A stretch of DNA of 64,000 nt from contig CAJINV010000008.1 in the NCBI GenBank assembly GCA_905178155.1, positions 124,001 to 188,000 of the forward strand, given 5' to 3'. Origin of the DNA: Amoebophrya sp. A120. Lineage: Eukaryota > Protista > Dinoflagellata. How positions within the stretch are numbered: position 1 is the first letter of the stretch; every line of letters starts with the position of its first letter. The position numbers and the translations under genes were made by a program. The notes below the pieces were generated by a model. That model did no database searches. It was not told the origin of the DNA and saw nothing but the letters and a program-made list of their open reading frames with translations. This document shows positions 11,201 to 58,181 of the stretch, piece after piece.

Positions 11201-14200
11201 CACCGGTGCCCACAAATGCCGGCTGATGCTCGTCGCGGCCACCTGGTTCTACCTCGAGTTCGTTCGTACGCCGGGGAAACGGAATCTCGGATGATCCAAG
11301 GAGTTCGTTTTTAATGTCGTGGACACCAGAAGACCGCAGCTTGATGTGCGCTGTGCTGCCGCTTGCTCGGCGCATGCTGGCCCCTGCTTCGCCGGCGCCG
11401 GTCGTGCCTTTACTAGCCGCTGGGGGCGGCAAAATGTCATTGTCATTCGCACTGTCGAGAGCTAGCGGGCTGCACGCGTCGACGGTGGCATTCGCCGCAC
11501 CTTGCAGGGGCGAAAAGCCTTCGATCATACTGAGGTTTGGGGTTTGAATGGCCACTTGCTTGTTCTCGGTTCTTTGCTTTCGCCTCCGTACCAGAAACAC
11601 TTTCAGCCAAGCCACCGTCAGGAAGAGCTGTCAGTTTCAAATAGTGAATGTTTCTTCTGAGTTAGAGATACATACAAATACGTTCAGTTTTTGGTCAGGA
11701 CGACGTGGTGCTGAAAGCATGGAAACGAGGTTGTACAACGAACTTCTACTTTTTACTTAGGTTTAGTACCTGCACGCTTCTTTTCGCCTGCTGCCGCTGA
11801 TGCAGGAAAGCCGCACTGCTTTGGCGTTTGCGCTGGTGAATGGCTTCCTGCTCCAGCTTCTTTGCTTCGTCCAACTGTTCCTCCCAAAGCTGCTCCTCCT
11901 CTCGCTCTCTTCGGCGGCGCTCTTCCGCAATTTTTTGCAGCTCCGAACTGTATTCCGCTCGCGCCTGTAGGGTTCCGTCCTGCTCCTTGAGGGCTGCCTG
12001 CAGATGCTCTTCCAGCTCGCGTTTTTTTCTTTCTTCGTACTGACGCTTCTGCTCCGCTGCGACTGCAAGACGCTCCGCCTCTTCCTTGGCACGGCGTTCT
12101 TCCTCTTCCCGGGCCAGCCGCTTAGCCTCCTCGCGTGCGAGACGGGCCTCCTCTTCCCGCTTCAGGCGCTCCTGTTCCTCCTGTGCACAGCGCTTCCTTT
12201 CCTCTTCGGCGCGCTGCCTTTCTTCCTCTTCGCGCCGCCTGGCCTCCTCCTGCCGCTTCCGCTCCTCAATTTTTTCCTTCTTTTCCAGCCGCACATTGCG
12301 CATGTACATCTTCAGCAGTGATATGCGAAATATCTCGTGCACGAACGTCTGGACACGTGCTCTGTGGCGCGCCGCAGTGTACAGGCGGGGCCGCAGATTC
12401 TTTGTGATGTATCGCCGGCCGTACACCGTCAGTAGCAACATCCGCCACAAGTGCCGCAACAAACGCTGGGCGGCGAGCCGAACCCTTGTGCGGCACAACC
12501 ACGCGTCTAGCCCGATGGCGACCCGGACCGCCTTGTGGACCTGTTGTCGTGGTATTTTTTATTTTTTTGCCTACCGAAAGAACCGAATGCAGAGCGGATT
12601 TGGATTTCATGATTCAAAGGAGCACAAAAGACCCCACATCCGAAAAATCTTTGCGTTTCAACATCTTCTACATCTTACCCTGCATGCCAGCGTTGCAAGC
12701 CGCTTGTTCCTAAGAAATATCCTCGCGCGCCCCGCCCAGCGCATCAACCGCAGATACGTTCGCGTGACGCGTACTAGACCCATTCGGATCGCATTTTTCC
12801 GCACGTTCTTCATTATGTTTTTTAGGTGGATGCTGAACCGGATGACGTTGAGGCAACGGCGAAGCTTTTTCTTCCAGACGAGTTTGCGCAGCTTTTTCAG
12901 CACTGGTCCACTGGCCTCCGCACCGGAAGCCTTAAGCGCCTCGAGCACCGCCATGCGGCCCGCTTTGAGGAACAACCGCGTCGTGCCCAGGGTCCACTCC
13001 CGCAGCGGGACGTCAAAGGCAAGCATCAGGGACTCCACAAACATGCGTGGATCCGTGTTTTCGCTAAACTCGGGCGGCAGCAGCGGCGTGAATCGGTGGT
13101 AGAGGTCCTCAAAGGGGCACCGGTTCGGGTAGCCGTCGCGCATGACGCGCACCAGCTCGATGGTCCCCGATTGCACCATCTGCTCCAGAATGGTCTGCCC
13201 CTGCCAGTAGTTCGGCCGCTGCTCGTTGTTCGGCTTGAAGCAGCGGATGTAGTGCAGGGAACACTTGTCCAGTGTCTCCATCAACTTCTCCAAATTCGTC
13301 ACGTAGCTCTTCCCGATGGTCTTCGCCGTCGGGTTGTCGGCCAGGTTGCACGCCTCCTCGTCCTGCAGCTGCTGCACCAGCGGGTTCACGCTGTCCCGGA
13401 TCACCTGTTCGGGTCCCGTTTTCATGCGCGTGTTGTTTTTCTCGATCCAGCTCCGCGTCTCGTACTCCACCTCACCCGCATAGTGCCGGATGACGAAGCC
13501 GGCGTTTTGGGCCAACGCCTGCTCCCGCCCGGCGCGTTGCACCGCCTTCTTGCCGATGAAGGGAAACTGCACGTTTTTGCGCCGCTCCTTGTGGATTTTT
13601 TCGCAGAACTTCTCGTCCGTCGCGGTTTGCAGTCCCTTGTTGGCTTGCTTGTTGAAGTCGTTCAGCTCGGCCAGCACAAAGCGGACGTCGTCCAGCACCG
13701 GCTGCGCGTCGGGGAGCGGGATCGGCTTCCAGGTCAGACCCTCGCGTTCGTACATGGTCTGCTCGGCCACCAACACTTTCTCGACGAAGAACTGCTGCAG
13801 CCGCTCGTTCGCCAGGTTGATGCACAGCTGCTCCAGGGAGTTGGACTGCAGCTGCTCGAAGCCGTAGATGTCCAGAATCCCGATGTAATTCCGGTGCGCC
13901 TCGCCCTTGCTGGTGTCCTTGTATGCAAGAAAAAAACGGCGTAAGTGTAACTCTGTGATGCAGAACATGCAACAGAGTTACACCTGTCATGCCAAACGAC
14001 CATGAAGTCCTCTTTTCGTGTGTGTTTTCCCTTACGACCCACGCATGACAGGTTTTCTCTGTCATGTAGAGCATACTTGTGATGCTGTCAGCCAAAGACA
14101 GTTACACTAACACAGTTTTTTTCTTGGATACCTTGACCGCACGGTTTACTTTCTCCACCATCCAGTCGAACAGCCGGCTGTAGAGGATTTTCATCAACGA

Positions 14201-16406
14201 TTGCAGCATCCCGTTGGCCTGGTCCTTCGTGTTGTGTTTCAGGCAGATCGAGTCCTTCATGTGCCGCGCGATGGTGTTTTTGGTCGTGGTCAAGTGGTCG
14301 TACAGCGTCACGTCGTCAAACCCCGCCTGCGCGCAGGCGTAGTCGAAATGCTCCTTGTTCGCCATCTCCAGCTCGCCCTCGATGCCGTGTTCCCGGTCCT
14401 TGAACCGCACTTCGCCGAGGTGGATCAACGCGGCCAGCACGGAGAGCAGGTCGCCCTGTTCCTGGTCCTTCACGTTGACAAAATCGAGGCTCTGGATCAG
14501 CACTTTGTAGTTGTCCGCATCGTCTCGCGCCTTCGCCCGGGTTCTCAGCAAGTTGTACTCACCGTCTGGGAGCAGAAAGTAGTCTTCCAGGTTTTCCGCA
14601 CCCGCGAAAAACTCGTAGAAAACGTGGTACCTAGTAGTGTCGTGTGTGTGTGCGCATTTTGGAGGGAAACATTTTTGAGTACTTTTGTAACTAAAACAGT
14701 TTTCGTTTTTATTTGAAGGACTAAAACCAGGTCCAGGCATGATCCAAAGCGACTAGAGTACACCTACAGCTCCAAGATCCGAGAAAAGCTGTAACCGAGG
14801 AGGCGCAAAGATTTGCAGCCACTGCTCACTGCATCGAAATCAAATCAACAAGGGGTACGTTCGTTCGGCTTCGGCGCTGTTCAGTACGCGGCTGGCCTCC
14901 AAGAGGTATGTACGGACCTCGGCCCCCACCAAGCTCCCGACAGCGTTGAAGCAAAGGTTATTGTATTTGCCAAACCTCGACGAGTTTCCTGTTTATCGAA
15001 TTATTTCGGATTTTTTTGGAGCTGATGTGATAGTACTACCGTAGAAAGTAGAAATGCTATCTATAGCATGAGCACCAAATACAGTCCATCTCGGCCAAAA
15101 ATCGAATACTACGCCTGAGTGTCTTGCAGTTGCACCTAAGCTATTTGGGAAACTACAACTAGATGGTTTGATCGTGATGACCAACAACGAAAAATCTACC
15201 ATTCCTGATAGTTGTTGCGTTTCCGAATGACTCTAGCAAAGGATTCGCCGCAGAGAGAATCTTCTCTTGCAAGGAAGCTGCTTGGCTCTGTTCCGTGCGA
15301 GAGCGCTCGCCGAGAAACTTCATGACCATCTTGGCCGTCTCCGTCTTCCCGGCCCCCGACTCCCCCGATATGACCATCGCCTGGCTCTCCTTGTCGCAAA
15401 GCAGTTGTCGATAGGCAAGATCAGCCAGGGCGTAGGGATGCGGCGGTCGCTGGTGGATGTTGGTAAGGTTTTTGTATTCCAAGCGCTTCTGGTCCGTGTC
15501 AAGGTAGACAGGCTTGTAGGGATTCACTGCAAATAACACCGCCCCCGTGAATGTGTAAATTTGGTCCTCACAATACCGGACTCGCAGGTTCTCCAGGATG
15601 TTCGCTTCGTCTAAATGGGTCAGGCTTGTGCAGTCGGGCTTCCCCACCGCAACGGCGGTTCCCACCCGATTTCGGAAGCTCCCGCTGTTTGACAGTCGCA
15701 GCCCTCCGCTTGTCCCCGTTTTATTGCTGCCAACCGCAGAAGTGCTAGATCCTCCGCCGAGCAGGCTCGTGCGCCAGTTTTTGCTACCTTGCCTATTGTT
15801 CACAGCTTCCTCAGGCTTTGGCCGTGGGAACACTTGCCGGGCTGCTGCAGTCGTGCCAGTACCGAACGCATTCGTACCGGGTGTGCCAGGTCTAGTCGGC
15901 GTGCCAGGCCGCTGTCCGGTCGGCGTGCCAAGACGCGTTGGTGTGCCGGGACGGCCGAAATGATCCGCACCAGCACCGACCTGGAGACGCGCACGCTCGA
16001 TACCTCGTTCGGGATCGGGCTCGCACTCGACTACAAGTGTTGGCAGGGTCTCCACAACGGTACCGGCCAGGTACCCGTGCTCGGGAGCAGAGACATAGAC
16101 TGGATCTCCTACATTGAATGCGGTGGAGGACGAAGCAACATCGTCTACCACATTGTCCTGCGGCACGGGAAGGGACAAAGCAGCGCTCGGCCCCGTACTC
16201 GCATGTCCGCCTGTAGTTGTACCTCCAAAGGCGAACTGTGGCCGTGAAGGGGTAGACGTTGCCGCGCCTCCATTGATACCTGTGTTCGACATCGACGAGG
16301 ATGCGCTGCTTCCACCCCTCTGAAGATTCGAGGACGAAGTGAAAGGGGCTTGGTTTTGTGGAACGGCAAAAGACCCGTTGCGAGGACCTCCTCCTAACCA
16401 CGACAT
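8269..16406 (-). CDS. Unconventional myosin with SH3-like N-terminus, ER/K single-alpha-helix region and long disordered tail (7 exons)
   Basis: P-loop GESGAGKT, switch I NSSRFGK, switch II LDIYGFE, HYIRCFKPN. Introns 14989-15199, 14631-14858, ~13918-14131, 12541-12678, ~11559-11769 and ~10422-10768 all keep the frame. Stop TAG at 8269. Confidence 0.9.
13922..14130. mobile_element. Introner (TIR element), 209 bp, in the myosin motor domain
   Basis: TIR TAT(G/C)CAAGAAAAAAAC.G.GT.AGTGTAACT; TSD CCTTG at 13917-13921 and 14131-14135. Removal restores AVK-DTSKGEAHRNYIGILDIYGFE. Confidence 0.9.
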
Positions 16407-17609
16407 TTTTGCCTAGTTGCAGATGATTTTGATTACTCAGAAAACATTATCGAAATTTGCATTTTTACTTTCCCGTATTGATGTTTGACTTCTTTGATAT
16501 GATACGATAAAGTAAAGAGACACGAGCAGCGATGAAAGAGTTAGAGTTCGCAATTAGAATTCCAGCACACAAAAAGGAACCCTTGAGTCTTCTTCTATTT
16601 CGCATTGGTTTTGGATTTCATTTGGTGTAAGAGGGAGAGCATAAAGAAAAAATTGGTATGTGCGACTTTTCATGCACTTGCACAATTTATTTATTTTTCT
16701 TTAAATCTTTTGGTGCACACCAGTGCGGCGGATCGATTTCATCAACATCAAGAACGAGACACCACACCACCGACGACGAGTAACTACGGAAATAGTTGTG
16801 CGGTTTTCTATTTTGATATTGCGCACAGGTGGCGTTGCTCTCACGACGATCACCGTGTCGACTAACTCTATTTTTTTGGTAACGAGACGAGGGCGTTGAT
16901 TTTCATAGCAACCGGAACCACTGCAACAACTTGTAGTTGGCATCACATCTTAATTAGCATTCCTCCTCCTTCTGCAGCGGGAGCAAGACTATGGTAAGGG
17001 GCCATCCTACTTGCCGAAAGATACATTCAACATCGATGTTCGACAGTCATCACATCTCTTTCTGTATCCGAATTTCGATGAGACTGAGACTACTTCGATT
17101 GTTCGGTTTGTTTTCTTGTGGTCTCGCAGGAATTTTTGCACAAAAACGAACGATCGATGTTTTCGACGAACACATTGAAGTAGTCGCGGTTCAAACGACC
17201 GTGCATCAATTTAGAAGCGAGGTCGACAATAAATCTCCCTCGGCATTTGCTTCTACCTTCTTCTATGGAAGTGGGTTTCAACTTGTTGTGGTTTAGCGAG
17301 CATTGTGAAGTCACATTTAAATTTATTCACATGAAAGCTTTCTTTCTCTAGATACAGCATAGGCTGCACTTTAGATACCGGAGATTGAGATTTCACGTCT
17401 CTCGTTTTTTGAATTGTGTAATGCTAAGTCTATCGATCATCTAGTTTGATCTTTAGAAGCCGGCATCTTGGAAGAAGAAACTAATGAAGTTACTTCCCGT
17501 GCGAGTTTTTTGCAGCTTCTGTTCGTGTTCCCGCCCTTCTTGGCGTCCTCCTCGTATTGCTTTCACACTACAGAGGTAAGAAAAAAAGACTCTTGTTTTT
17601 TCGAGGCAG

Positions 17610-17731
17610 CAGTAGTTTTCGGTAAATTCTTTCTCGGTGTGAAATTTTCGTGTGATTCTCAGTGGTGACAGTAGTTTTCGGCTCAAAATTCTTTCTCGGT
17701 GTGAAATTTTCGTGCGATTCTCAGTGGTGAC
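17610..17731. repeat. Tandem duplication, 2 x ~60 bp
   Basis: CAGTAGTTTTCGG...TTCTTTCTCGGTGTGAAATTTTCGTG(T/C)GATTCTCAGTGGTGA repeated at 17610 and 17669. Confidence 0.85.
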
Positions 17732-17825
17732 TGAGATCGTGTGAGTTTTATACAACTTGAAGAATAGAGGCATGCAAATTTCAATTGCTTTTTGCTTCTT
17801 GAGCTTCACCGTGTCCTTTACACAA

Positions 17826-20800
17826 TTACGACGTATTTTCTGCACCGTCGGATAGGGATCCATTGCTGTCGTGGCTGCTCTCCTCAAAATCGTTCCACAC
17901 GTTGTCTTCATCGGTATTGTTCTTGTCAGCTTCCCAGAATTCGTCCCCCTCGTATTTTTCCTTAGCGCGTTTCGCGTCGATCTTCCTCAGGTGCTTCAAC
18001 AGCCGCTTTTCATCCTCCTTCTGGGCAAGCTGCGACCGAGGGCGCGAGTCGTACAGCGACTCTTGCTCTTCAGTAAGCAATGAAACTATCATGGAGAAAA
18101 CTTCGCCGGTCAAAAATCATCAATGCAAGTTTCAGTTTCTTGTTTGTTTGGGAACGACTCTGATGAATAAATTAGCAGAACGAATACGAGTAGAACGCCT
18201 ATACTTTTTGATTTTTCTCTGGTGTTGTGGGCTTCTACGTACAAAATGCCCTCGCTGACGAGATGCGTGTGTGTATATTTTTCTTGCGTGGAGAAGCCTC
18301 ACAGATGAAGCGATAATTCACATAAACCTTTGATGGCTTTGTTGACTTGAGTGAAGCTTTTCCCTCTGCCGGCATAAAGGCCAGAGATTGCTGTTTTCGA
18401 AACCTCTGGCTATTCTTTCGAAACTCCGCCTTGAATTTTTCAACCCCTTTGGGCCGGCCGGCCATCAATGCTTTATCAATATCGTCCGCGTCGGCAACGA
18501 GTCCGTGTGGAGTGGCCTGGCTTGGAGTGACACTTGATGCGCCGTAGTCATCATCTTCTGGTGCGTTAATGGACGAGGATGAAGTGGATGCTGACCTGTG
18601 GTGAAGATGAGTGGACGAGTTGGCGTTGACACAAAAATTGCTAATAGCAATTTTTGAAAATGCAAATTCAACCACCATGACCATTGATTCAATTTCAGGA
18701 GACAAAAGCTGACGAGTTCTTGCATCATGTAAATGAAATATACCCAGAATGGTCATGTGAATTCTCGATGTTTTCGGGCTTCTCCTGCTTCTTCTGCTTG
18801 TTGTTCACGAAAAACTGGAAGGAGCTTGCCATCGACGGAGAAGCTGCTACTTTTGTTCCAGGGGCGTTTTTCCGTTTGCCAGGCGGCGTTTTATTGTCCG
18901 TTCCAGCGGCATGTAGTGCCGAGCTGGAGCTGCTGGAAGAGGACGGTGCTGTACCCCCGCTGCCGTTCTTGCGTGGTGGCCGCCCAGCAGGTGGCTTCAT
19001 CTTGTTGCTTGGCGGCCCCAGGAACGCCGCAAAGAAATCCTCTTTTGGCTTGGTTTGCAGCAAAGCTTTTTGCACCGCTGCGTCGCGCTTCGGACCGGGT
19101 TTCTCCGGAATGTCCACGCCGCCAAGTCTTCGAATCGGGGAGCTCGTTACATCCGCCGCTTTGATGCTTTCTTTCTGAGAAATAAGCTGTTGCGGCTTCT
19201 TATTTATCGCTGGCAAACTAATCTGCAACGACGACTGTGAAACAGCGGCTGGCGCTGCATCAGCTGCAGTAGCTTTATTGGCCTCCTGTAGGTGTTGCAG
19301 CTTCGGCTTTGCTGCCGTGCCAGCAGCCAAGGCTAGGGCTTCTTGATCTTTCTTCTCGGACACCATGGCCGACACAGGTGGAGCAGCACATTCCTCGCGT
19401 GGTCGACCATCGCTGACGCCGGTGCCGATGGCAAGGGGCTTGGCATCTTTAACTTCCCCCGGTTTGCTTTCATCCCTGACCCTGCTTTCCCTCGGTGATT
19501 GTAAGGAAGCTGAGGGCGCCGGTACTGGTGCGGTGGGCAGCTTGGGCTGCACCTTCTGCTCCTCCTTCGCATCGCCCCGCGCCATCAAGGCGTTTCTTGC
19601 GTTGGACCGCCCCCTCGTTCCTCTTGCCCTTGCCGGGGACCTCTTGTTTCCCCGAGCCTTCACCTCCCATTTTTCCTTTGCGGCCCACCTCGCTCGGCAT
19701 TCTGCTATGGGGCGACCGACGTCCTGACTAACCCGCTCCCAGTAAGCCACGTCTGCTAGGTTGTGCCGGCGCGCCGCTTCGGCTAGCTTCTTCTCGTCTG
19801 CCTTCGACCAGTCTTGCGGGGCCGCGGATTGCGAGGTGGACGACGAGATTCCGTTCCCTGCGTCGCCTGCAGCTTCCTTAATATCCGCGTTTTGATGGCT
19901 TGCCGCGATCGCGAGCGCTGCTTTCGACTTGTCTCCCGCTGGTGGAGCCGCAGCCTTTTTAGGTCTACCTCTACCCCTACCTTTTTTCGCCCCAGCCGGG
20001 CTGGCGGGCTTGTGGTCCTCTTGTAGTTCTCCATTCTGCAGCAGCGTGCGTCCCATGCCGCTGGGCTGCTCCTTTGCGTTCTTAGATGTGTCTGGAACTC
20101 GATCCTTGTCCTCGCGGTCACTATCGCCGCGCACTGCTTTCCCACTTCCGCCCGTGAAGGCCGAAGCTTGTTGCTGGTGATCGGGGTGCGGTGCCCACCT
20201 CTTCTCTTCTACTTGCCTCGACACAGCCCCATTGCCGCTCTGTCCAAACACAATCGCGGCAGCTTGTTCATTTTCATCTTTCAAGTTGGTTGCGCCGATT
20301 GCTTCAGCTATGTTATCAGGAACATCTCCTGGCTCGATACCGGCACGGCGGAGCTGCTCTCTGAGGAGGTTGTTTTCTTCGAAAAAGGCCTGTCCTTCCG
20401 CCCAGATACGGTTGATTTCTACGTTTGCCTTCGCCACGTTGCCGTTTGCCTGGTCTATCGCGCTGCGCATTCTCGCCATCCCTCTTCTCGCCTCACTCTC
20501 TGCGGCTTTGCGGGTTTCGTTCGCAATACTTGCTTGCTTCTCCATGAGTGCCTTCCAATGCTTGTCCAACTTTTCTTTCTGCTCTGCCTTTTCGCGCAGC
20601 AGCGCCGCTCTTTCCTTGTCCCACAGTTTCTGTGCAGCATCAAGTTTTCCCTTTTGGTGAAGGAGAACCTCGTCCAAGCGATCTTTTGCTTTTCTCTTGC
20701 AAGTTTCGAAGACATGCGACCACTTCTCCTTGAGATCCTTGAAGCTATCGCCCTTCGCCGTCTTCGCGGCTGCCTCCGCAACCTCCACCGACGCCTTCAG

Positions 20801-23800
20801 CTCGTCCACCTTAGTTCGCAGCTCGATATTGTCCGCTCGCCACGCGGCTACCTCGTCGGCGTGGTCTTGCTCCGCTTCCGCTTGCTCCCGCAGGCGCGAT
20901 AACTGTGCTTGCAGCAGCTTCTGCTTTCCCAGTGCCAATCTCTGGTCAAGTTCCGCAAGGTCCCTCCTCATCCGCTCCTCCGTAGGATTGTGACCGCGGT
21001 GCATGGAATTGGAAGTATTTTTATTCCCGCCGAACATCAACGCAGTACGAGGACCAAGAGCTGCACCAGCCGCAGTGGAAAACTGCATCAAGGTGTTCTG
21101 CTGAATACTAGCACCTGCTTGCACCAGCCCCGAAGCCATGGCGGTGGCCTCGGCTAATCTGACCGCTAGCGGTTTGATTTCAAAACGCACCGTGTACCCG
21201 AGTTTCAGTTGCACGATGCGTTCGGCCTCCAGGATATCAAATGTAAAAATGTCTGGGTCTGGAAAAGTGTAGACTTGTCATGCAGAATTTCCATGACCCA
21301 TGAGGTCTGGAGTGCGGCACTTAGCATGACAGACTCTACGAGGTCTCTGCCATGCCTATCCTGCATGAGAAAGTCCCTTCCAACTTGGTCAAAAGTATAC
21401 CGCTTTTGGCACTCATGCAACACAGATTTTTGCATGCTTCAGATTTACCATGACAAGTTGCAATCGTCCAGACCCAGACATTTTTGCAATTCATACAGGA
21501 GCAGCTGTGGCAATTCCTCGGCCATGGAATCCAGAAAGCTTGAGTATGACACCCTCAGAATGGAAATCCTCAAAGTGGAAATAATTTGTGATGCATGAAA
21601 TGCGACACCAAAAAGACTGTATTGCAGAGAACGCAATGGAGGCCGACTACTGTGCTTCTACGGGTTCAGAATTGGGCTGCTGATTAGCACGGGAGAAGGG
21701 CACCCCTTTGCCTAACTAGCATGACAAACACGTTTTGAGTGCCCGGGAAATTTGTCATGCGCCGACTATAAATGCTGCTCGAACTGGCGTCGTTTTTTTG
21801 CATTACAAATTATTTTCACTTTGAGGATTTCCAACCTGAGGCTTTCATATTGACGTCTGGTTATGGTAAACCAGCATGCCGTCGAAACACAGCGCGGAAA
21901 CTTGGTATTTCCCATTGGTCGCCGCAATGACGCGCTCCAACTCGAAGAGCACTGCGTCCTCCAGCTCGCCGATCACGTAGGACAGGAGGGTTCGCTTCGG
22001 GTGTTGTCGACCCGAAAACAGTTGCAGCAGATCCGGCCGCGAGCGCGCCACGACCTCCATGCAGACATTCGCTTCCTGCTCAAACCGCCGCACGAAGCCG
22101 TGGTTCCCGGGAACAGCGCTGCCGCAATGCTGCTTCCAGGCGTCTATCCCGCCTCCGTAGAGAAGCCGCAACAACAATTCCTTAGCGTCCTCGCGCGTGA
22201 CGTTGTAGTAATTTTGGATCCGCTTCAGGCAATTCTCGCGGCCGTTAGTCGTGTACAAACGAATCATCGCCAGGGGATCTGACAAAAGTACGCGGAGACA
22301 GTAAATTTTGTTGGTTTTCTCGCACTTTTTCTAAAATTTCGGTTGCACGGATGAACTTGCGCTAACTACGCGTAGCTGTACTTTGTTGAACTTGATAATG
22401 CTGTTGATCATGAAAGTGTATTGTAGAAGATAGAGGCACGACAACCACATTGATTTATCAAGATCAACATTACAATACCTGCACCCCCGTCAGGCAAGCC
22501 GTGACCCTCGCGAAATGCGACTGGTTGTTCCTTGACAACTTGTGCGAGATTTTCCGCAAAGGCAGGCTTATCAAGCAGCTGCACCAAGAGGGTTGGGTAG
22601 CAATTCTGCAGGTCGACATCTGTTGCGAGGTGTCCGCAGGCCGCGGCGCGGACAAGCTTGGAAACGTGTTGCAGCGAATACTTGTGATCGGCGTAGCGAC
22701 GCCCCATTCCCTTCGGGCGGTGGTAGCTCATTGGAATTCGACCTTCATGTCGGAGCGCTACCGCTAGCAACTCCTCTGCTTGTGCGAGATACTTGCGGCT
22801 TGCGGGGTCCGTTCGAGGGGCGAACTGTAGTTCCCGAACGAAGTACCCGAGAGTGTGCACATCAACAACTTCGGTGTAACACGTGTGCTCCGCTGGGATT
22901 GGTCTGTAGTCTGGGTGCACGCCGGGTTCTGGGGAATCTTCCTCCTGGCCGAATGATGAAGATTTCATTCCTCCTCGGCCTGGACCTGAAATCAAGTTCA
23001 TGTTCTTGGCAGCTTCTGGTCCCTTGTTTTCATCCTTTTCTGAGGCCGCCGCACTGGACGATGGCGATGACGTTTTCGTTTTCCTGCGCTTCGCTAGCGG
23101 CTCTCCTACTCCAGCTTCATTCTCCTGGTCCTCCTGGCTGCTCTGCAGCAGCACGCTCAGATTTGGGCTTCTGTTCGCTGCTGCTGCTTCTTCTTCGCTG
23201 CGATGGTAGGGCGCGTGTAGTATCAACTCAAGTTCGCGACTGAAACTGCTTTCACGTCGCAGCTCATCTCGGTGTAGGGTTTCGAGCGGAGAGGCCGGTC
23301 GACTTTCCAGGGCAAAGCTCGCCTTCGCGACATCACCATTTTCGTCCCTGCTGTCGTCAGGCTCTTCCACACTGTGTTCGACACTGAAGGCAAGGTCGCT
23401 AAAACTGAGGGCCGGTATTCGCAAGCACTCAGGTAGCGGTCGTACCCGTAGAGGTTTCTGACGTCGAACCACGCCGGGATCGCCAGGGAGATTTCCTGGG
23501 TCATCTTCGAACTGCTCGTCGTGCTCGCTGTTTTCAACATCGTCTTCTGCGCTTGGTTGTGGCGCGTGGTCTGCTGTGCCAGCGTCGCCGGCAAAAGTGC
23601 TGTCGGTTTTTTTCTGATCTTGTGCTAAGAGCAGGCGGACTTCTGGGTTGTTGTCAAATGACTCCGAGGCACGTAAAAGATACGCCGTGGAAAAATGTTG
23701 CGGGGGTGCAACAGCCTCTTTTTGCAGCGGACCGGGCCCGCCTCTGGCGGAGTAGAGTTCTTCTTCCTTTCTTGCGTTGTTAGAGTACCCTCGCGGCATA

Positions 23801-26800
23801 TGGTGCTCCATAGATTCCTCATTCTCGTGTTTCGCCATTCCTGAGCCATCTTGCCTAACATGATCGTCGCCGGAAACTACAGAAAATTGTGAGTCCGGTG
23901 AAATCGGATCTACAGCTACAATACGGGCGTTTGCGGGGAGCTTCATCAAACGCGGACGCTTTCGCTCCGGAGACGTCTCGGTCTCTTCTGCATCTACTTC
24001 TTCAGCAAGCGCTCCTATGATGCTGGCCCCATCCAGGAGGTCCGTCATTTCGGAGAGTTCAACCATTCCGGACAATTCAACTGGAGGCTCCTCTCTGCTG
24101 ATATCGACCTGACCAACGGCCGAAGAACGCGAAACGAGATCGTGCCGGCGCTGATCGTTGTTCCCCATGCGCGCGGGGGCGTCAAAAATACCGTGATGGG
24201 AGCCTTGCAGCTGCCGCCGGCTCTCATTGTCTACTTCCCGAACACCCCCTCGAGCATCATCATGATTGTGTCTTCTCTTCTCGCTGGCCTGGACAGGTAG
24301 TGGCTCCAACTCCACCATCTTCTCCAACTTATTGCCACCTAGCAGGGCGTCGTCTGTATCCGTCGTCTTTCGTGGTCTCGATGTTTCGTCAGGGACGACC
24401 TCGCGGTCGTCGTGACCGACTTCGACTTGGTCCGTATGAGGATGATCGTCCTCAGGAGCGACATGTTCCACTTGCGCATCTTCTTCTTCTCGTACTATCA
24501 CAGATGTGTTGATATCGTATGGCACTTCTCGTCCCTGCTGTGGCGTCGCTTGCTTCCCGTTTCCACTTGCCGGTGGTGAGACAGAAGTGGAACGCCGGCG
24601 CCCCTTCAGCATGTCAAACACATCTTCTTGAGAGGAGTGGATTTGGTAACCAAGCACCTTCTGCCTCTCCATGATTGTACTGGAAAACATCTCGAGGAAG
24701 CTGTTCCGCTTCGGGGAGGAAGTGAATTTGCTTTGCTGCTGGTGGGCCCCGCTTGAAACGGACCGCGACAACGCTGGCTCGCTACGCTGCTTAAGGCGCG
24801 CTCGATTTGGGCTCGGAATGTTCGCCATGCTCATCTTGGAATTCCTCGGGGGAGAATTGGTATGCGACCGGCCGATCGTCCACCCTTTGGATAGTACTTG
24901 TCTTCCTAGAAGCAAAGGGGCAAGGGCGGGGGCCGGTGCATACTGCGAATCATCTTTATTTTCCTCACGACTTCTTGCTGATAGTGATACAGCGTCCATG
25001 TACTGGCTGCTCCTGCTTGCAGAAGCAAGCGACCGCTGCGAGGAGAATACGTCTGCGCCGACGCCGCCCAATGCTGCAGCAGCGTCGCTCCTGGGACACT
25101 GGGCGGCAGTCCAGGTTCCGTAGTTGCTCTTCTGCCTCGCTGACGCCTGCGCAGTATTTTCGCGTGTCCGCAGGTGGTGGAAAGCAGCTAGCGCAGGAGT
25201 AGGAGAGCCAATCGGACTGGGTCGCAGGCCTACGTTTATATTTTGTTGTAACACTTCTGGAATGAAAAAGCTTCTGGCGCCGCCAGCAGCTGCACCACCT
25301 TGCCCGTGAGAATCTTGTACATAATTCCCTGCGTTTCCGCTTGCGCCATTGTGATGGTCTTTGTCGAGGGGGAAGCGTTGCAGTCCACTCTCGTCCGAAT
25401 TGGAAAAGCGGGCGTTCATGCGCTCCAGAAGCGGTAGCGAGGACTCGTGGTCACCGGCAATGCTACTCGGCTCGTCGCTTTGCGTTTGTTTTATGAAAGC
25501 GGTATCAAGTTGCTGTCCAGCACACTGAGATGATGAGGCGGACGAAGACGGTGCAGTACCGACCTGAAAATTTTCCATCCTTGCGACGAGTGAGAGGGAC
25601 GACAGCCCATCTGTAGCGGACTGAACTTGATGCTCATCAAAAGCATCAGTGTTGTCCTCCGCTACCGGTTCGGGTAGTAGAGGCGGCCCGGCGAGCTCGA
25701 GGTCTTCCTCCAACGGAAATTCGCGCAGCAGTTCCGAATCCAGAATCCACTCTTCCCGGAATAGGCATACAACGGTGCGATCAGTCAGGGCATAGTTCGC
25801 AGAGGCAGGAAACATGCGACGAACATCCATTCTGCGCTTACCGAAGCCGGACCAGGGAATAGCTTCCGGAGGCTGCGGGAAATAACCGCGGCATAGCCCG
25901 CGCGAGGCAGCGTTTGCGGCAACGTTTGCATCGAACCGAGCGAGCAGGTCGCGCGACTCAACAGGTAGGTAGTCCTGCCCTGGGATCTGGTAGGTGATTG
26001 CCTGCTCTGCCTCGCCCTGTTGCCGTAGACGTCGCCAGAAAAGTAGTTGGCGGAAGTTTCTGGGGAACCCGTCACACTTCTGAAAGCCCACCTTCACGAA
26101 GTCGGGTATGTGTGGATGGGAAAACGACTCAAAATTGAACGTGTTGTACTGGACCGCAAGCAGTTTTCCATCGCGAAGCGCAAGCCGGTCGGGTCCCACC
26201 GCATGCACGATTGGAGCAGACAAATGGCGGCCTTGTTGGCACTCGACCGCGTCGCGCCCCTGAACTCGCAGCGTCAGCCCTGTCTCGGACACGGGCAGGT
26301 GGTGTTCCCGCCAAAAGGCCTCTTGCTTTTCGAAAGGAAACATTTCGATGAACCGATCGAAAGGCACCTGCTCGCGAAACTGCCACACCGACCGAGTCCG
26401 CACTTCGTCCAGAAGAACGGGCCCCCAGTCGTCATACTTCAACTTTGCTGCCGCCGGTGCAACGGTTTTCTCTTGCTGTGCGAGGAGTTCGGCACAAAAC
26501 TTACAGATCGGCTCGCCAAAATCATTTGTCGGGCGAGGACCCGATCCACAACAATTGGCATTGCAGATCATTGCACGGCAACTACCGCACTGTCGCAGCG
26601 AACCTGGAGTATTGTAGAGGTTTCGTTTGACAAGCGCTACGAACACAATCACAAAGACAAAAATGACATAACAGAAAAATAAGTGATAAAAAGTGTTTCA
26701 ACTCAACATAGATAGTACCCGAATCACAAGAATCGTCGCCTGCGGGGAAGCGCCTGCATTCGACACAGACCGGCAGCAGGGGGTCCCATCCGGCGCACAT

Positions 26801-27979
26801 ATCGCAGCGGTAGCCGTGCTGTTCGATCTCCCTCAGTATAGCCTTGTTTTCGATGCCCAATGCCCTCCAGTCCGGATCGCTAAAAATTGGCGGCCAAAAG
26901 CACTGGCGGCACGTAAAGCTGCCGCACTCCTGGCACTGCACATGGTATGCCTCTTCGCGCCGTTGATCAGCCGTGAAGACCAGGGAGGCTATATTCATGT
27001 TTGCGCAGTATTGGCAATCGTCCAAACCAAGCTCCTTGCTTCTTTCACAAACAGCAGCCGCACGATTATTCTTCCCGCGCGTGGCCCGGCGGCCCGTACA
27101 GGAGCTTGGATGACTCGGGTGACGTCCATGGGCGGGGCCGCTAGCACAACTAGAGAGACCGCTCCTTTCGACATCGTCCAGAGAACAGAGCGACCCGTCG
27201 CTTCTGACACTGCCACTCGGGCTCCCGGGCACGGCAGTGTTTTGTTGGTAGGGGAGCGGGTGGGCGGACTCGTTACGCGGCCATCGATCAGTGCTACTAG
27301 AATCCTGCATGAAAGAACCATGCAGCGGCCGCCGGTCTTGCTCCACTACGACCTCCACCTGACCCAGTGCAGGCGCAGGCTGTGCAGGTTGAGAAATAAC
27401 TCTCTGGCGTTCTACTTGTTCTACTCTATGATCAGCAATGCCTCCTCCGGTACCGGTTCCGTACTGTGAACGTGAATAATCGCTACCTGCTCCTCTTTGG
27501 TGCGCAAAATCAGATTGAGATTGCCCACGTCCGGGTCGTCCACGGTCTCCGTGGGAAGTTAGCGGAGGTGGAGTTCGCGGAAGGTCGGGAAGACGAACAT
27601 CTGGCAGTGTTGCAGCTCCCCCAGGAGGACCTCGCTCCCCGCGGCTTCGTCGTCGTGCTGTCACTGGAATTTCGTGTCCGCATTCTACACTTGCCGTGCC
27701 TGTTCGTTGTTCTCGTTGCAGAGACGAGTGCAAGAACACGTCAGTTTCATTGAAGCCGCGCTGTGGCGCTACAACCGCTGAGGAAAATTGCTGAGGATCT
27801 GGATGGGCGCCCCGATTTGGAAAAATGGTCGGCGTCATCTGCTGCAGTACCGGAGAGGACGACGAGGACGAGGACGCGGATGACGTGGCGCCAGCCACTC
27901 CACAGGCTATCCAACTAGCGCCACGATGTGTCGCTTGCGGAATGGGATAAGTTTGCATGTTATTGTATGCGTATGCCAT
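17826..27979 (-). CDS. Giant (~2,900 aa) multidomain protein: Cys-rich Zn-finger-like N-terminus, disordered linker, TV-Pol/family-A polymerase-like domain, coiled coil, AT-hook, SANT/Myb
   Basis: ORFs 26582..27979, 22408..26652, 21845..22285, 18725..21214, 18235..18756 and 17826..18113 join through GT-AG introns (~26604-26718, 22279-22505, ~18596-18743) and two introners; the last junction is not resolved. Pol motifs: GRRYA..SLQ, DVDLQNCYPTLL, AKELLLRLLYGG, SALCFDGMLV, LGYTVRFEIKP. AT-hook GRGRGRPKK; SANT-like WSKADEKKL...YWERVSQDVGRPIAECRARW. Confidence 0.7.
21235..21495. mobile_element. Introner, 261 bp
   Basis: 29-bp TIR TAT(C/G)AA(A/T)TG(T/C)AAAAATGTCTGGGTCTGGA; TSD CAGGA at 21230-21234 and 21496-21500. 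Removal gives ELPQLL-LEAERIVQLKLG. Confidence 0.9.
21545..21849. mobile_element. Introner, 305 bp (same family as 54523-54829)
   Basis: ~50-bp TIR TATGA...CCTCAG..TGGAAATCCTCAAAGTG.AAATAATTTGT.ATGCA; TSD TTGAG/TTGAC (one mismatch). Removal gives YHNQTS-SFLDSM. Confidence 0.88.
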
Positions 27980-29201
27980 TTATTTGATTTTCTTTTTCGT
28001 CCGCGGCGCAGGCGCAGCGACAGCTGCAGTCGCCTGCTCCTTTGCGCGCAAAAACAAAACTTCAAGCTTGCTCTGTTTCGCTGGTGGAGCATGTATCGCT
28101 GGTTTCCACCATGTTGAAGATCTGAAGTGAACTACAGCACCGCAAACACTATGATCAGCTTCCCGATGAATCGAAAATACTCGCCTCTTAAGTTAGGATG
28201 TACTCGATCAATGTGTTGGCGGAAAAAATCATGAGTTGCAGTAGCAATTGGTCAGCACGTGCTAATCCTATACTAACATGTACATGGAGATGAATCAGGC
28301 TCACTACAAAAATAATCACTATCATTCAACTGTGGTTAGTGTTCATTATTACAGCCTGCAACTGAAGAAAGTAAGAGTATCCGCTTCAAGATAACCGTTG
28401 AGTGCACTTTTGTCCTACTTGTGCTTGCAATCCTCCTCCATCTTCTTCGTCATCCACCATGGTTTTTCACTACTACATGTTCTGCTCGATTTGGTGACCG
28501 GTTCTCATTCGTAGTGACTCTCGTTGGATGTCTCCTCATGCTCAACGTCATCCCCTTCTTGCAGCAGCAAAAATAAATAACACAAACAAAAAGACGTTGA
28601 ACTTTTCTGTTTTATTAATAAGAGGAATATAGTGAACTATCAATATGCTGGGGGAAGGGGACGACATTTTTCTTACATTCAGGCACGATACGGAGACAGA
28701 ATTAATGTAAAATACTCTGTCACTTTAAGGGAACAAGCATGTCGTGTCTGTGTGAGAGCGTAATATTGTAACTACGGGGCTCCGGTTCCTATCGGCGGAC
28801 GGACATTGAAAACTTGCGCGAAAAAGACCACCTAGAGAACAACGAGTTTAAAACCCGGGATCCGTTTCATAGCAACGCAAATACTAGGCATAGCCCTTTT
28901 CGCGATGCGCATAGTGTTTCCTTTGAAAAGATGATATATAATATCATCTTGCTTCTGCTTGTGCTTTTAGCGCATTCGATTATCTTTTCCACATTTGGAA
29001 TTGGATCAGGATCAGAGGACTCCTCCAGCTCTTTGTTCTTGTTAAAATGTGTTTATTACTCGGCATTGAAGAGTCCTTAACCAAACCGGAACCTTCGTTT
29101 CCCAATCAAACAGTGCAAGCATCGATCTCCTCCTACGCATCAGCCGTGGAGGACTATAACAGGCCTCTCGTCCTCTTTCATCAAGCGAGCGCAACTTTTT
29201 G

Positions 29202-32200
29202 TCACGGCGAGTCAAACACTCGCTGTGACGCGGAGACCGGCGGATCCCTACGCCCGGATATCCTGTCATGGTCCGTGCGACGGCTGGTCGTGCCGCGTCG
29301 GCTGGCTGAGCCTGCGTTGTCGACATCGAACGGATCCTGTGTACTGAAGAGGCGCACTTTTCCGCAAGACAGTAAGTCGTCCTCAGGGTGTTGGTGCCCC
29401 GCAGCAACGCCCCCGCCAGAGGAGCCGATGACTTCGCTGCTGCCCCCGGCGTGCTGCGGCAACCGGCTCGCTGCTCCTGCACGCACGACCGACCGCTGCT
29501 GGTGTTGCTGCTGACCCCCGCCACGAACCGCGGAAACCGATTCGAAAATTTTCCCGGCACTGTTCTGCTGCTGATCGCGTCGCCGGGCGCTCCAGTTCGT
29601 GCTGTTCATCATCGTGCCCCCCCGAGCGGCGATTCCGCCAGCCACACTGGGGCTCAAGTGCAGCAGCGACAAACGCCTTTGGTCAGCTGGACTGGGTCGC
29701 GCCGGGGGGCTTTGCGCCGACGCGGCGGCCATCTCGTCGTACACGGCGAAGTCCGCGCGGGTGACCTGAGTCACGTTCTGAACGGGCACGTTGGGGTTCG
29801 GCCGTCGCCTTTCGCGGCTGCCGCTGTTGTCCCGCCGAAGCACGGCAGGCAGCGGCTCGGAGTTCATCTCTCCAGGATGGCGCGGGTTGCTGTTGGACCG
29901 GAACAGCGGAATTTGCGGGCGGTTTCCAAACAGCATCCCGCCCCCGGCGCCCGCCCGTGGGTGTCGCGGCGAGAGACCACTGATGATCCGCCCGTTGTTG
30001 TTCACCACGACCGGCGGGCCAGCACCACTCGCGGAGCTACTGCTGCTACCACCTCCCGTGCCTGCTGTTACAGCGCTCTGATTCATGACCAGGCCCCCGC
30101 CGCCGCCACTCGTCGATATGTGGTGCAACAGTTCTGCGGAGTGCTCCAGGGGAACCGCGTTCTCGTCGGAAGCCGGCCGCTGAGGAATTTCCATGGAAAC
30201 ATCACGGCGCCCACCGAAAACCGCGGAGTTGTTCAAACTCATGGACGGTGAAGCGCCCCGAGACGGTAGTGGCTTGCTGTGAGATCCGGGTGGTCGCTTC
30301 TGCCCGCTTGAGGGACTGCGCTGGCGGAGCATGCGGTCCTGTAGGCTCTTTTTCAGCGGCCCGGTGAGCTCTTGTTCGCGCTTTTGCGACAACTTCGAAT
30401 CGAAGGAATGGTGCGGCCGCAAGATTTTCTTTCCCGAGCCCGACGAGCGGGCGCTTACCGCGGACCTTCTCGCATCCGCCTGACCACTCTTGCGCCCGTC
30501 CGCGATGGAAGATTCTCTGCTGCCCGCAGCACCGCCAGCACCCTGGCTGGTTTTTGCCTCGGATTTCTTTGAGTGAAAATGAAGCGCCGGCTGTGATTTT
30601 GATACGTCGGGAAGGCTTGTTGAGGCCCCGATGATGGAAGAATGTGCTTTTAGCTGTCGTGGCCGCTTTGCCTTCGGCGCCAAATCCTGAATTTTCCCTG
30701 TCGTGTCGTCGAAGAGCGCGCCAACGTCCCTCATGGCGCGCTTGGTCGCGAAGGTGAGCTCCTCCTCGTTTAGCGCCACACCGTGGGCAGCGGCGCCTGA
30801 GCGGCCGCGGCCAAACAAGCCGGTGTTGTTCTCGCCGCCGCCCTCGAGAATCCGACGCACTTCCCGAGTCATGTTGCCGGCGTTGGTCATTTCCGGTTCG
30901 ATGCTGACATGTGGGCGATCGCGGTGCTCGGAAAATGGCAATGGTTGAACATCATGATCGGCATTCATCACGTTGTCGCGTTTGATGTCATTCCTGCCCG
31001 CACTGGTAGTGCCTTGTTGCGCGCTTGATGAAAATTGCGGTTCTGACGCACCTTTTCTTGTCGAGTGATGCTGCTCAACATCAACTCCCCCTGTATGTGT
31101 ATCGCTTAGCAGGCGACCGGCGCCGAGTGGAAGCGGCAGGATTTTTGCAGCACCGTCGCTAGTCTCTTTCTTGCGCCACGCATCCCAGAATTTTTCTGCC
31201 CGCATTTCCTCTATCGATATTCCGGACGGCAGAAAGCCGAAAACGAAATTGCTTTTCTTTCGGCTGTCGTGATGCGACTCCATCGCTGGGAGGGGTCCGG
31301 AGGTCGGATCTTGTTCCAGGATCAACGTGACTTCGTGGCTCAGGTCGTTCTTACTCTGCATTTTTAGCATGTCACTCTTCTCGTTTCCCCTGTTATCCAC
31401 CCGCCCTCCACCAGGAACCAGCTGATCATTGCATCGCTGTAGTCGGTGACCATATGTAGCTGCTGGGGGACCGCCCGGACCTTCGCTTTCGTGCCTTAGC
31501 ACTTGCATTTCACCGAAGTGCACCCTCGAGCTCGAACTACTGGAGGGTTTAACTGGCTGATCGCTAGCGCCAGGCGTGGTGGTTGCTCCCGGTACTGCCA
31601 TCGCGGCGCAAGCGGGCTGAGAGTCTTCCATCTTTTCCTCGGCCACGTCTAGCACCCGCCCGAACGCACGCTTCTTGGTTTTCGGACCCGATGGACAAGT
31701 CACAGAAGTAGCTGCCGTAGATGGTGCAACAGCTGTAACATGAGGGCGCTCATCTTCCTTTTGCAACGCCTCTGAGTATTCCTGGAACTCATCGTCGCAA
31801 AACAATTCAAAGGAACTGCTTGCAGTGGTTGTTTTTTTGTTCGGTATGATGTTCCTGTAACCTGACGATGACGTCGACGAAGCGGGCGCGGCCGGAATCG
31901 CCTTCATTCCGTCCCAGTTCACAGCCTTCTTGACGTTTTCGGACCGGAAAGCTGGCGCTGCTTCTAGCGATGTGGGAAATGGCAATTGACTCCACTCGGA
32001 CTCCTATGGTATATGTTGTATTAGAATTTGCATTTTGAACTCAAGCAGCTGCACATGGACAAGCACATGAAGTCACCAGATACGTATGTGCATTGTTTTC
32101 TACTTTTTCTACGGCAACGGCACGTAAGCACACAACTGATATGAAAATGCAGCAAATGCAAAATTCTGTACAAAGTCAAATATGTTCTGTCGCTGTGCCC

Positions 32201-33727
32201 CAGCAAGTTCGTCCCTCGGCGACAGGACGGTCCAATTGCGAGCCGTGGCGAACGCGCTGGCAGAAGCGGGTGGTATTGAAGACGAGGTCTGACCAGGAAC
32301 GGAAGACCCGGAGCATGACGTTGCCTGTCCCCAGCGGTCGTTGCCAACCGGTTGCGGCTGCGATGACGACATCATTTGGCCGAGCAAACCGCCGACGACC
32401 GGACGTCGCACCATCGATTTTGCGTCCTTCCCACTCAGTGGGTTGAAGGCCTGACGACTGCTGGAGGAACTGGCCTGCTGGTGCTGCGGCATCTGCTCCA
32501 TTTGTTCAGGTGGCACATCATCGCTCTCGTTCTGGTCCTTCAGATCGCGCTTCACCCGCTCCACCATGCGCACCTGGAATCGGTCGTAGTCCTCCTGCAG
32601 CTTCACGAAAGGCTCGGCCTTCCGCGCGAGACCCATCTTGTAAACGTCTTCGGTATCCTCGAACCGACGCGCTTTCTCCAGTACCGAGGCCCAAGCCATG
32701 TAGAAAAGACCTGTACAACGGAAGACGTTCTTTTGATATCAACTAAAACGATCGGTAGATGAATAAAATAGATCGATGCGACCACTCAGCACAGTTGCTA
32801 GCCCGTCGTCCACTCCTTTGACTCTGTTAAGTGCGCCGCAGTAATAGATGCTGAAAATGAAGCCATCTTTACATGATCAGTGAGTTGGTGGTCTTATAGG
32901 AAAGTAATCGAAATACAAATAGACTATTTGTATTTCGATTACTTTTGAAATAGTTTGATACCGAAGGTCTGCCCAATGCCATTAGCCCAGAGAAATGGAA
33001 ACATATCGACGCTGTTCTTCAGACAATGCTCGCCATACATGAGCCACAGTGTCAAGTATCGGTAGTCGCTCTTGTACCGGGTCTCTGCGAAAAACTTCCG
33101 GGTGGCGCGTTCGAGATATTGTTGAAATTCCATTGGGTGGGCTTTCCGCGTCGTTTGCTGCTGCCACCATTTGGCATAACCGTGCCTGCAAGTTTCATTT
33201 TATGGTGCGGAACGAGTAGAAGCACGTGTACGGGTGCGGAAGAGTACTTCTTATAAATATATTCTTTCAGGTGAGGAGCAAATCAATAAGGAAAAGGAAG
33301 ACATTATGAAGCAATGGGCTGCAGCTCGGGGTAGTCGTAATCATAAAACATATTTGTTCATTTTTGATATCTTCGTCTTCCTGTACCAACAGTGGCACGT
33401 TCATCACATCATACACTCTATCGATCCGGCTTGCTTATCATGCCTTTCGACTTCATCGCTAAGAATGAACAAAACAACGGAACGTCCGACCAGACAACAC
33501 AACTACAGAAAGAATCAGGTGAAATGGAAGGTTTACCATGCGGCCAAGGGGTCCGGCGAGGATTCATTTCTGATATCTGCCTCCCACCGCGCTCGCTCCT
33601 CGTCCAGTCGTGAGTCCTGCTGCTCCGGCTCCTCGTCAAGAACCACTAAGGCAGCAGCGCCCCGTCCGCGCTTCAAGGGCACTATGTTTTCCTTGCATTC
33701 CTCGACCTTGCCGATGTCGAATACCAT
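29202..33727 (-). CDS. MadBub/Mad3-BubR1-like spindle checkpoint protein without a visible kinase domain
   Basis: KENIVPLKRGR KEN box, DPLAAW, TPR region YKSDYRYLTLWL...GIGQTF.LFYMAWA...GLARKAEP, ABBA-like FELFCDDE and FAVYDE, GLEBS-like ISIEEMRA, CD1-like TFATKRAMRDVGALF. Four exons with GT-AG introns; stop TGA at 29202. Confidence 0.85.
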
Positions 33728-58087: not shown

Positions 58088-58181
58088 TTAGAGATAGATG
58101 AGAGAGATCGGAGATGAAACAGGTCTCAAACGACTCTTAGAGTCGTTTGAGACCTGTTTCATCTCGACCTATCATCTCTAA
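58088..58181. repeat. Foldback palindrome (MITE-like)
   Basis: Perfect 27-bp arms at 58111-58137 and 58139-58165 around a single T; outer arms TTAGAGAT/ATCTCTAA. Confidence 0.9.

Follow-up and report, generated by a model that had tools for sequence, protein, structure and literature searches.

What does a DNA polymerase of a mobile-element type do inside a spliced nuclear gene that also encodes chromatin modules? The question is raised by a gene on the minus strand of a 64,000-nucleotide (nt) stretch of the genome of Amoebophrya sp. A120 (contig CAJINV010000008.1, positions 124,001 to 188,000), here called the window, whose coordinates are used throughout. The coding gene (17826-27979, seven exons) has as its annotated product a 2,939-amino acid (aa) 'unnamed protein product', CAD7957035.1 or GSA120T00006704001.1, hereafter P0001. 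We read it, tentatively and at a little less than an even chance, as a KNL2-like centromere factor with a captured mobile-element TV-Pol, which would serve as a tethered, non-proofreading DNA polymerase. An earlier sequence-only reading of the window had proposed a domesticated TV-Pol/PolA-like polymerase fused to chromatin modules; it missed the SANTA-like domain and the relatives of the same architecture.

The seven exons (27979-26719, 26603-22479, 22278-21850, 21539-21496, 21229-18742, 18593-18378 and 18082-17826, minus strand, as for all features of the gene given below) reproduce P0001 exactly when translated. Between 27979 and 18725 this strand holds four open frames of 465, 1,429, 161 and 850 codons. 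The stop-free frame of 1,429 codons contains both the SANTA-like stretch and, at its end, polymerase motif A; the RxxxK, YGG and motif C signatures are in the exon after motif A, and the last palm strand is found 3' of both inserted elements. Seven of the ten public runs listed were holders of the sequence, none of the seven being on record as RNA, and four runs were mapped onto 17000-29000. A single contig of run X3, 6,025 nt long and with zero differing letters, spans 24489 to 17246 and omits five segments: a canonical GT-AG intron between motifs A and B (22279-22478), two introners (21540-21849 and 21230-21495), an intron at 18594-18741 that is GT-AG if the cut is shifted by 2, and a non-canonical intron of 295 nt at 18083-18377, of which there is no second copy within the window. 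The RNA status of X3 is a guess of the tool only, and we read the contig as a transcript because five introns have been removed exactly. The 3' two-thirds of the gene is spliced, and the exons joined in this way give one frame of 1,814 stop-free residues. Further 5', separate contigs (depth 6-7) cover 24473-25884 and another covers 27531-27950. The annotation may share RNA data with X3 and is therefore not independent support for the gene model.

The polymerase domain occupies 21164-22887 (residues ~1660-1975). Its signatures are a GR hairpin (22699-22704), motif A DVDLQNCYP with its Asp at 22612-22614, an RxxxK (REDAK, 22181-22195) that precedes motif B, the YGG that ends motif B (22151-22159) and motif C CFDG with its Asp at 21881-21883. 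Hairpin Arg, two Asp and RxxxK are features ascribed to TV-Pol by Iyer et al. 2008 (PMC2579912). With exon 2 as query, a search of the full protein set gave 131 proteins with E values of 0.001 or less, P0001 on top, and residues 1650-1980 were aligned with 79 relatives. In the resulting 80 rows the hairpin GR before motif A is present throughout (80/80, window included), as are the palm catalytic Asp of motif A (80/80) and the fingers Lys (80/80); the Asp of motif C is found in 78/80 and the fingers Arg in 72/80, and the window keeps both Asp. Seventeen sites are at least 90% invariant in the 76 rows that are not fusions. The window domain retains all 17, and the four full fusion domains, of which it is one, retain 17, 16, 17 and 17, with the bias towards retention that comes from gathering the rows by likeness to the window domain; outside these sites the same four domains are 31-65% identical. 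The fusion lineage has a Tyr in motif A where His is usual (59/80). This Tyr, five residues past the motif A Asp, presumably stands at the sugar gate.

An AlphaFold2 model of residues 1650-1980 reached a mean predicted local distance difference test score (pLDDT) of 91.9 and a predicted template-modelling score of 0.90, and the predicted fold is that of family A. With Foldseek the best match in the PDB is the Klenow fragment (E 3e-7), and in a wide structural search ten family-A DNA polymerases lead, followed by single-subunit RNA polymerases. Structural Z scores are 16.3 for Klenow (Pol I; root-mean-square deviation 3.8 over 286 residues), 15.4 for Pol theta and 12.9 for Pol nu, and the top ten structural matches share 9-16% identity with the domain. 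Among viral models (BFVD) an unnamed 776-aa protein comes first (E 3e-19), then the replication protein of the Zamilon virophage (E 5e-17, template-modelling score 0.70), which we take to be a homologue of Sputnik V13; the named phage DNA polymerases, at 1e-6 or weaker, come far behind. In sequence searches, Pfam and PHROGs left the polymerase exons undetected, exon 2 found nothing in the PDB, a PDB search with the alignment profile matched only the helicase part of the relatives, and tblastn against phages gave a single match at E 0.9. The sequence-only reading is thus upheld on the family-A palm and on motifs A, B (followed to YGG) and C with intact catalytic Asp, as it is on the splitting of the domain by one canonical intron and two introners; its range of 21165-22760 needs a start slightly further upstream, at about 22887.

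The surroundings of the gene are those of a host gene. On the same strand a myosin gene lies downstream and a Mad3/BUB1 gene directly upstream, with ABC transporter, methyltransferase and copine-RING genes further off, and such flanks count for a host gene rather than a mobile element. The 44 open reading frames (ORFs) scanned, out of 68 in the window of at least 150 aa, yielded no capsid, integrase, transposase or helicase family, in agreement with the earlier reading, which had seen no helicase, capsid or integrase. A weak Pox_A32 cross-match (E 0.048) falls inside the ABC transporter, and no long repeats flank the gene among the repeats listed. Capsid, packaging ATPase, integrase or transposase and terminal repeats, the marks of an endogenous virophage, Polinton-like virus or DNA transposon, are thus missing from the scanned ORFs. 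Within P0001 a pattern search found no Walker A, in this or in any of the six fusion sequences, and Pfam found no nuclease family; the flanks of the polymerase are of low complexity. Because the usual D5-like helicase and the mobile neighbourhood are missing, we class the domain as TV-Pol-derived and the gene as something other than a TV-Pol element. Taken with the model, these observations support a TV-Pol-type family-A polymerase captured by the host.

Like TV-Pols such as the virophage polymerase-helicase of Zamilon (V6BPG7), the domain is a minimal exonuclease-free family-A core with hairpin Arg, two palm Asp and RxxxK, and TV-Pol and virophage proteins are its best structural matches (template-modelling score about 0.70). 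It differs from TV-Pol elements in having no D5/SF3 (superfamily 3) helicase, resolvase, integrase or capsid nearby and in being part of an intron-bearing nuclear host gene for a 2,939-aa chromatin protein, and from most TV-Pols in its Tyr for His and Gly for Gln. The palm-fingers-thumb fold is also that of Pol I, theta and nu, but viral TV-Pols are much nearer to the domain, which is without the exonuclease-like and helicase domains of these cellular polymerases.

Relatives with the same architecture place the polymerase in a chromatin protein in other genomes too. P0002, Amoebophrya AT5.2 g2361.t1 (2,014 aa), matches the polymerase at 45% over 324 residues (E 2e-72) and also shares with P0001 the helical segment and the C-terminal motif described below. 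The likeness of the two proteins, 45-54%, is at the level of orthologues, for which 48-51% identity among these Amoebophrya strains is given in PMC7789003. P0010 and P0137 (2,026 and 2,205 aa) are complete transcript ORFs in EukProt (GEMP01000287.1 and GEMP01000256.1). The GEMP prefix probably denotes Hematodinium. Both carry Cys fingers, SANTA, polymerase and Myb, and the order in P0010, two Cys fingers, SANTA, polymerase and SANT, is the order in P0001. Cys fingers, polymerase and SANT are shared in the same order by P0001 and P0010/P0137, with the C-terminal motif in addition in P0137. In the fragments P0007 and P0009 the polymerase is followed by a SANT-like stretch (by eye; Myb E 0.35 in P0009).

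In a tree of 124 rows, from which near-duplicates and 14 of 22 viral loci were left out, five fusion proteins and one long-branch row form one group (support 86) inside a group of 18 rows (support 96), and in a tree of 47 rows a branch with support 82/39 separates the five fusion proteins from the other rows. Outside the fusions the closest relatives are metagenomic proteins, among them P0029 with a UL9-like helicase and P0019 with the CxC5 cluster of KDZ transposons, and a helicase-type Pfam domain is present in 25 of the 54 relatives scanned, P0001 being without one. The donor of the polymerase was likely a mobile element; the trees are unrooted and do not prove the direction of transfer. 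All 22 loci of a viral scan are distant (23-30% identity). Word-index searches returned 0 of 341 candidates for exon 2 against longer proteins, 2 of 5,434 for the polymerase-SANT region of P0010 (P0001 being missed though within the length range) and 0 of 81 for the P0010 N-terminus against shorter proteins. Such blanks are weak evidence, and restriction to Syndiniales is therefore not established. Two metagenome scans gave 600 and 133 pattern matches, none confirmed as a locus. As a side observation, the metagenomic TV-Pols P0019, P0029, P0025, P0030 and P0004 make up a sister group whose partners differ (the KDZ-transposon CxC5, a UL9-like helicase and, in P0025, an SF3-like P-loop seen by eye only). 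They could represent a family of eukaryotic transposons with polymerases that has yet to be described.

The clue to the function of the host part is a stretch at 26035-26448 (residues ~473-610, core 528-608), which we judge from its sequence to be a diverged SANTA domain. In P0010 the SANTA domain (Pfam PF09133, residues 108-193) is above the curated cut-off of 21 bits and taken alone scores 29.5 bits (E 1.1e-6); in the PDB it comes closest to the SANTA domain of human M18BP1 (9R6H, E 0.086). Compared with all 2,939 residues of P0001, the P0010 domain finds its best local match at 528-608, at the equivalent position 3' of the Cys fingers. The window domain would have an insertion of ~40 residues after its N-terminal LxYDDW motif. 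PMC9210943 gives VxLxDW and FxxGFPxxW as the end motifs of SANTA; in relaxed form each has a single occurrence in P0001, at residues 475 and 594, the final W being F. A spaced motif common to human and plant SANTA (the plant KNL2 sequences coming from the supplement of PMC9210943) has one match in P0001 (534-604) and one in the six frames of the window. A two-row profile of the stretch hit 9R6H only at E 1.2. A macrodomain reading of the stretch (E 0.16) was rejected: it has one short motif only, and the positional homologue in P0010 is a SANTA domain.

The SANTA-like domain is surrounded by further chromatin modules, several of which the earlier reading had seen. Its Cys clusters are two tandem Cys-rich, PHD-like zinc fingers at 26494-27016 (residues ~322-457), split by the intron 26604-26718; they align to residues 1-100 of P0010 with 1 of 2000 shuffles scoring as high. 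The second finger of P0010 resembles solved PHD fingers weakly (E 0.12-2.2), and the window fingers have no Pfam PHD match. The SANT/Myb-like domain at 19679-19816 (residues ~2425-2470) is a Pfam match to PF00249 (E 1.7e-6, 28.4 bits, cut-off 24.4) and aligns to the SANT of P0010 with 0 of 2000 shuffles as high; it shows no specific closeness to the SANT of M18BP1 itself. The AT-hook (RGRPK) stands at 19955-19984 where it had been reported, and none was found in P0002, P0010, P0137, P0007 or P0009. After the polymerase comes a charged helical segment (20339-20986), with a homologous segment in P0002 (E 3.7e-9). It is probably the coiled coil named earlier, which is weakly backed, a single 35-residue window having passed the heptad test. 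A conserved C-terminal motif ending K/R-Y-E-G-x-x-(F)-W (17928-18047) is common to P0002 and P0137 (0-1 of 2000 shuffles). An order-rich stretch of ~110 residues after the SANTA-like domain (25800-26035) has no family match.

SANTA together with SANT is the KNL2/M18BP1 layout, and the role is therefore narrowed towards a centromere factor; of the roles offered earlier, namely repair, telomere or centromere biology and element copying, it is the centromeric one that gains. KNL2 are described as SANTA proteins with SANT/Myb in some organisms and CENPC-k in many (PMC9210943), and SANTA, reported as needed for centromere recruitment, may be unique to M18BP1 (PMC12953894). P0001 resembles these proteins in its N-terminal SANTA-like stretch, long low-complexity linker and C-terminal SANT/Myb, a domain that animal members have. 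Unlike them, it has a polymerase between SANTA and SANT, two PHD-like fingers before SANTA, no CENPC-k motif and a changed SANTA surface. It is presumably two to three times as long as animal M18BP1. On its sequence features we file it as KNL2-like, short of a proven member.

The TV-Pol probably came from a mobile element that carried a helicase or a transposase, by one insertion between the SANTA and SANT of a KNL2-like gene in an ancestor of these lineages; the helicase would have been lost and the polymerase kept active. SANTA, PHD-like fingers, SANT and AT-hook would target the protein to the scarce histone-containing chromatin of the centromere. There the polymerase would use deoxynucleoside triphosphates on a primed template, extending primers or filling gaps in centromeric DNA, a mode suggested by the Tyr at the presumed sugar gate and because no exonuclease or single-stranded DNA-binding partner is visible. 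It could thereby complete centromeric replication or repair, coordinated with the licensing for new CENP-A. The helical segment could, more speculatively, give built-in dimerisation; dimerisation of M18BP1 is reported to suffice for its localisation (PMC12953894). The closest tested case is CCPol of the CCPol-MP pair of SCCmec, likewise an exonuclease-free family-A polymerase of the TV-Pol group, which differs from P0001 in coming from a bacterial mobile element with a helicase and in having no chromatin domains. CCPol extends primers on its own and primes only with its partner MP (PMC7581432; 10.1101/2022.12.02.518924), and for this reason primer-dependent synthesis is favoured over priming.

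A number of observations weigh against this centromeric reading. The first intron (26604-26718) has no skipping read among the mapped runs, and upstream of 24489 contig depth is about 6, down from 26, with 0 in the bin 26223-26623, so that the single spliced frame proposed earlier is borne out from 24489 to 17246 and is without read support at these two places. The spaced SANTA motif, matched by 0 of 5000 shuffles and 0 of 140 other stored proteins, was written post hoc after the stretch had been seen, with its last Trp relaxed to Phe, and P0010 itself fails it. The pairwise score of the P0010 SANTA is modest: shuffling the region gave a score as high in 24 of 2000 trials, and shuffling the whole protein did so in 40 of 500. 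The window stretch has no Pfam match, finds in the PDB only non-significant viral macrodomains (E 0.16-0.2), and folded at pLDDT 36 from a two-row alignment. By eye, neither P0001 nor P0010 keeps W413/H414 or E420/R421 of human SANTA, and a pattern search found no CENPC-k-like motif in the six fusion sequences. P0002 as annotated has neither SANTA nor Cys fingers. A single origin of the fusions is weakly supported (Shimodaira-Hasegawa-like approximate likelihood ratio test, SH-aLRT, 39). Within the polymerase, the fusion lineage has Gly where Gln is usual (56/80), before an invariant Glu. Both the polymerase activity and the centromere location are predictions from sequence and a model, and the assignment of a dinoflagellate CenH3 is itself putative and has been termed premature (PMC6723414).

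In the strongest competitor the domesticated polymerase is still active, but its scaffold, derived from KNL2, no longer acts at centromeres: PHD-like fingers, SANT and AT-hook would direct the protein to chromatin at large, where it would serve repair by gap-filling or end joining in a nucleus poor in histones. The catalytic sites are kept, as it would demand, and it would account for the missing CENPC-k, for the loss of the human SANTA recruitment residues together with the strong divergence of the A120 SANTA, and for the Cys fingers, which are not among the KNL2 parts named in PMC9210943. W413/H414 are reported to be required for centromere recruitment in human (PMC12953894); the plant SANTA sequences also differ at these positions. 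SANTA has nevertheless been retained, above the Pfam cut-off in P0010, and mammalian M18BP1 and plant betaKNL2 are described as centromere-acting without CENPC-k (PMC9210943). We regard this explanation as rather unlikely. The polymerase fold could instead have become a module of a KNL2-like centromere factor, one that binds DNA ends or the junctions of primer and template and synthesises little DNA, if any. The Gly at the place of the family-typical Gln would fit, as would the missing helicase or accessory partner and the description of known KNL2 proteins as scaffolds; such a change of use is improbable given that both catalytic Asp, hairpin Arg and RxxxK persist in four full domains amid 31-65% background identity.

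More improbable still is a host-captured primase-polymerase with primer-free initiation, which would act at host origins or copy introners or other elements. Primase-polymerase activity of TV-Pols has been predicted from their helicase links (PMC2579912), links that are also seen in the helicase-bearing relatives, and introners, for which PMC7789003 leaves the mobilising enzyme unresolved, are abundant in the genome. Yet helicase and Walker A are missing from all six fusion sequences, CCPol primes only with MP (PMC7581432), and no finding ties the gene to introner movement, the introners merely sitting in it. We find primase activity of the domain unsupported. Of the host-captured, chromatin-bound primase-polymerase suggested by the sequence-only reading, capture, splicing, host neighbours and chromatin modules thus stand and the primase does not; a silent viral remnant, the outcome that would have told against that reading, is opposed by the precise splicing and the host neighbours, read bridging of the 5' part not having been found. 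A virus or transposon remnant, or a gene model wrongly joining a SANTA gene to a separate polymerase gene, recalls the helicase and CxC5 partners of P0029 and P0019, the fall in contig depth and the shortened N-terminus of P0002, and is very improbable against five precise in-frame introns, a SANTA-like stretch and motif A in one open frame, the same domain order in complete transcript ORFs, scanned window ORFs with no mobile-element family, listed repeats with none long and flanking, and a P0001 cluster of one member on one contig.

The TV-Pol and KNL2 parts of this centromeric reading are each known, and their fusion is new in the literature searched. We found no paper on a TV-Pol that persists as a spliced gene in the nucleus of its host and none on a KNL2/M18BP1 with an enzyme domain, in a search that mostly did not extend to subscription papers and genome-paper supplements. 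A Tetrahymena preprint (10.1101/2025.11.28.691167) mentions KNL2 once, in a context other than dinoflagellates. If the reading holds, the protein would be a new nuclear DNA polymerase of mobile-element origin in eukaryotes and a candidate centromere marker, giving a handle on centromere marking in dinoflagellates, and its 330-residue polymerase domain is directly assayable. Dinoflagellate chromatin is largely histone-free. The broader proposal, that the centromere-licensing factor KNL2 of syndinians was made an enzyme by insertion of a mobile-element polymerase and that centromeres in a histone-poor nucleus are inherited with the help of a new nuclear polymerase dedicated to making DNA locally, is one we consider doubtful at present. 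CENP-B and SETMAR are mobile-element proteins domesticated for centromere or chromatin roles, and both derive from transposases, not from a replicative polymerase. A parallel would be the viral origin proposed for DVNP (PMC6723414), and CENP-C has been reported in dinoflagellates (PMC9418836).

The two elements inserted in the polymerase have the anatomy described for Amoebophrya introners, that is inverted ends, a direct repeat of 3-5 nt at the exon boundary, repeated occurrence and removal by splicing (PMC7789003). Introner A (21540-21849, 310 nt) has arms of 56 nt that are 86% complementary and the direct repeat TCAA at the exon boundary, which may slide by 4 nt; a second copy, 71% identical, is present at 54522-54819. 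Introner B (21230-21495, 266 nt) has arms of 29 nt (90% complementary) and the repeat TCCTG, with a boundary that may slide by 5 nt. X3 contigs from other introner copies stack on both. The raw RNA runs X8-X10 match introner sequence only (2, 2 and 1 of 30 bins) and are uninformative on expression of this gene. In X8 about 800 reads pile up on 21411-21658; their flanks are unrelated, and near 21658 they probably end in an oligo-dT adapter. They suggest an abundant transcript made up of, or still containing, an introner copy that belongs to another locus or strain. More introner-like elements with inverted ends lie at 54518-54834, which is related to introner A, at 44055-44163 and 50832-50944, which are related to each other, and at 13921-14131, 44470-44946 and 42550-43525; several of them start with TAT.

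The 3' untranslated region of the gene (17246-17825), inside the spliced X3 contig, carries a 46-nt direct repeat (98%) at 17624-17731. The myosin gene directly downstream has several exons (8269-16412, minus). The spindle-checkpoint gene Mad3/BUB1 (29202-33832, minus) matches PF08311 at 32942-33199 (E 2.4e-15) and 32112-32738 (E 2e-4), and its adjacency is not taken as evidence of function. It has a low-complexity exon of 933 codons in which no kinase domain was detected and ABBA-like motifs can be recognised by eye. Three perfect palindromes, each with a 1-nt centre between arms of 22-27 nt, occur at 58037-58087, 58111-58165 and 32901-32945.

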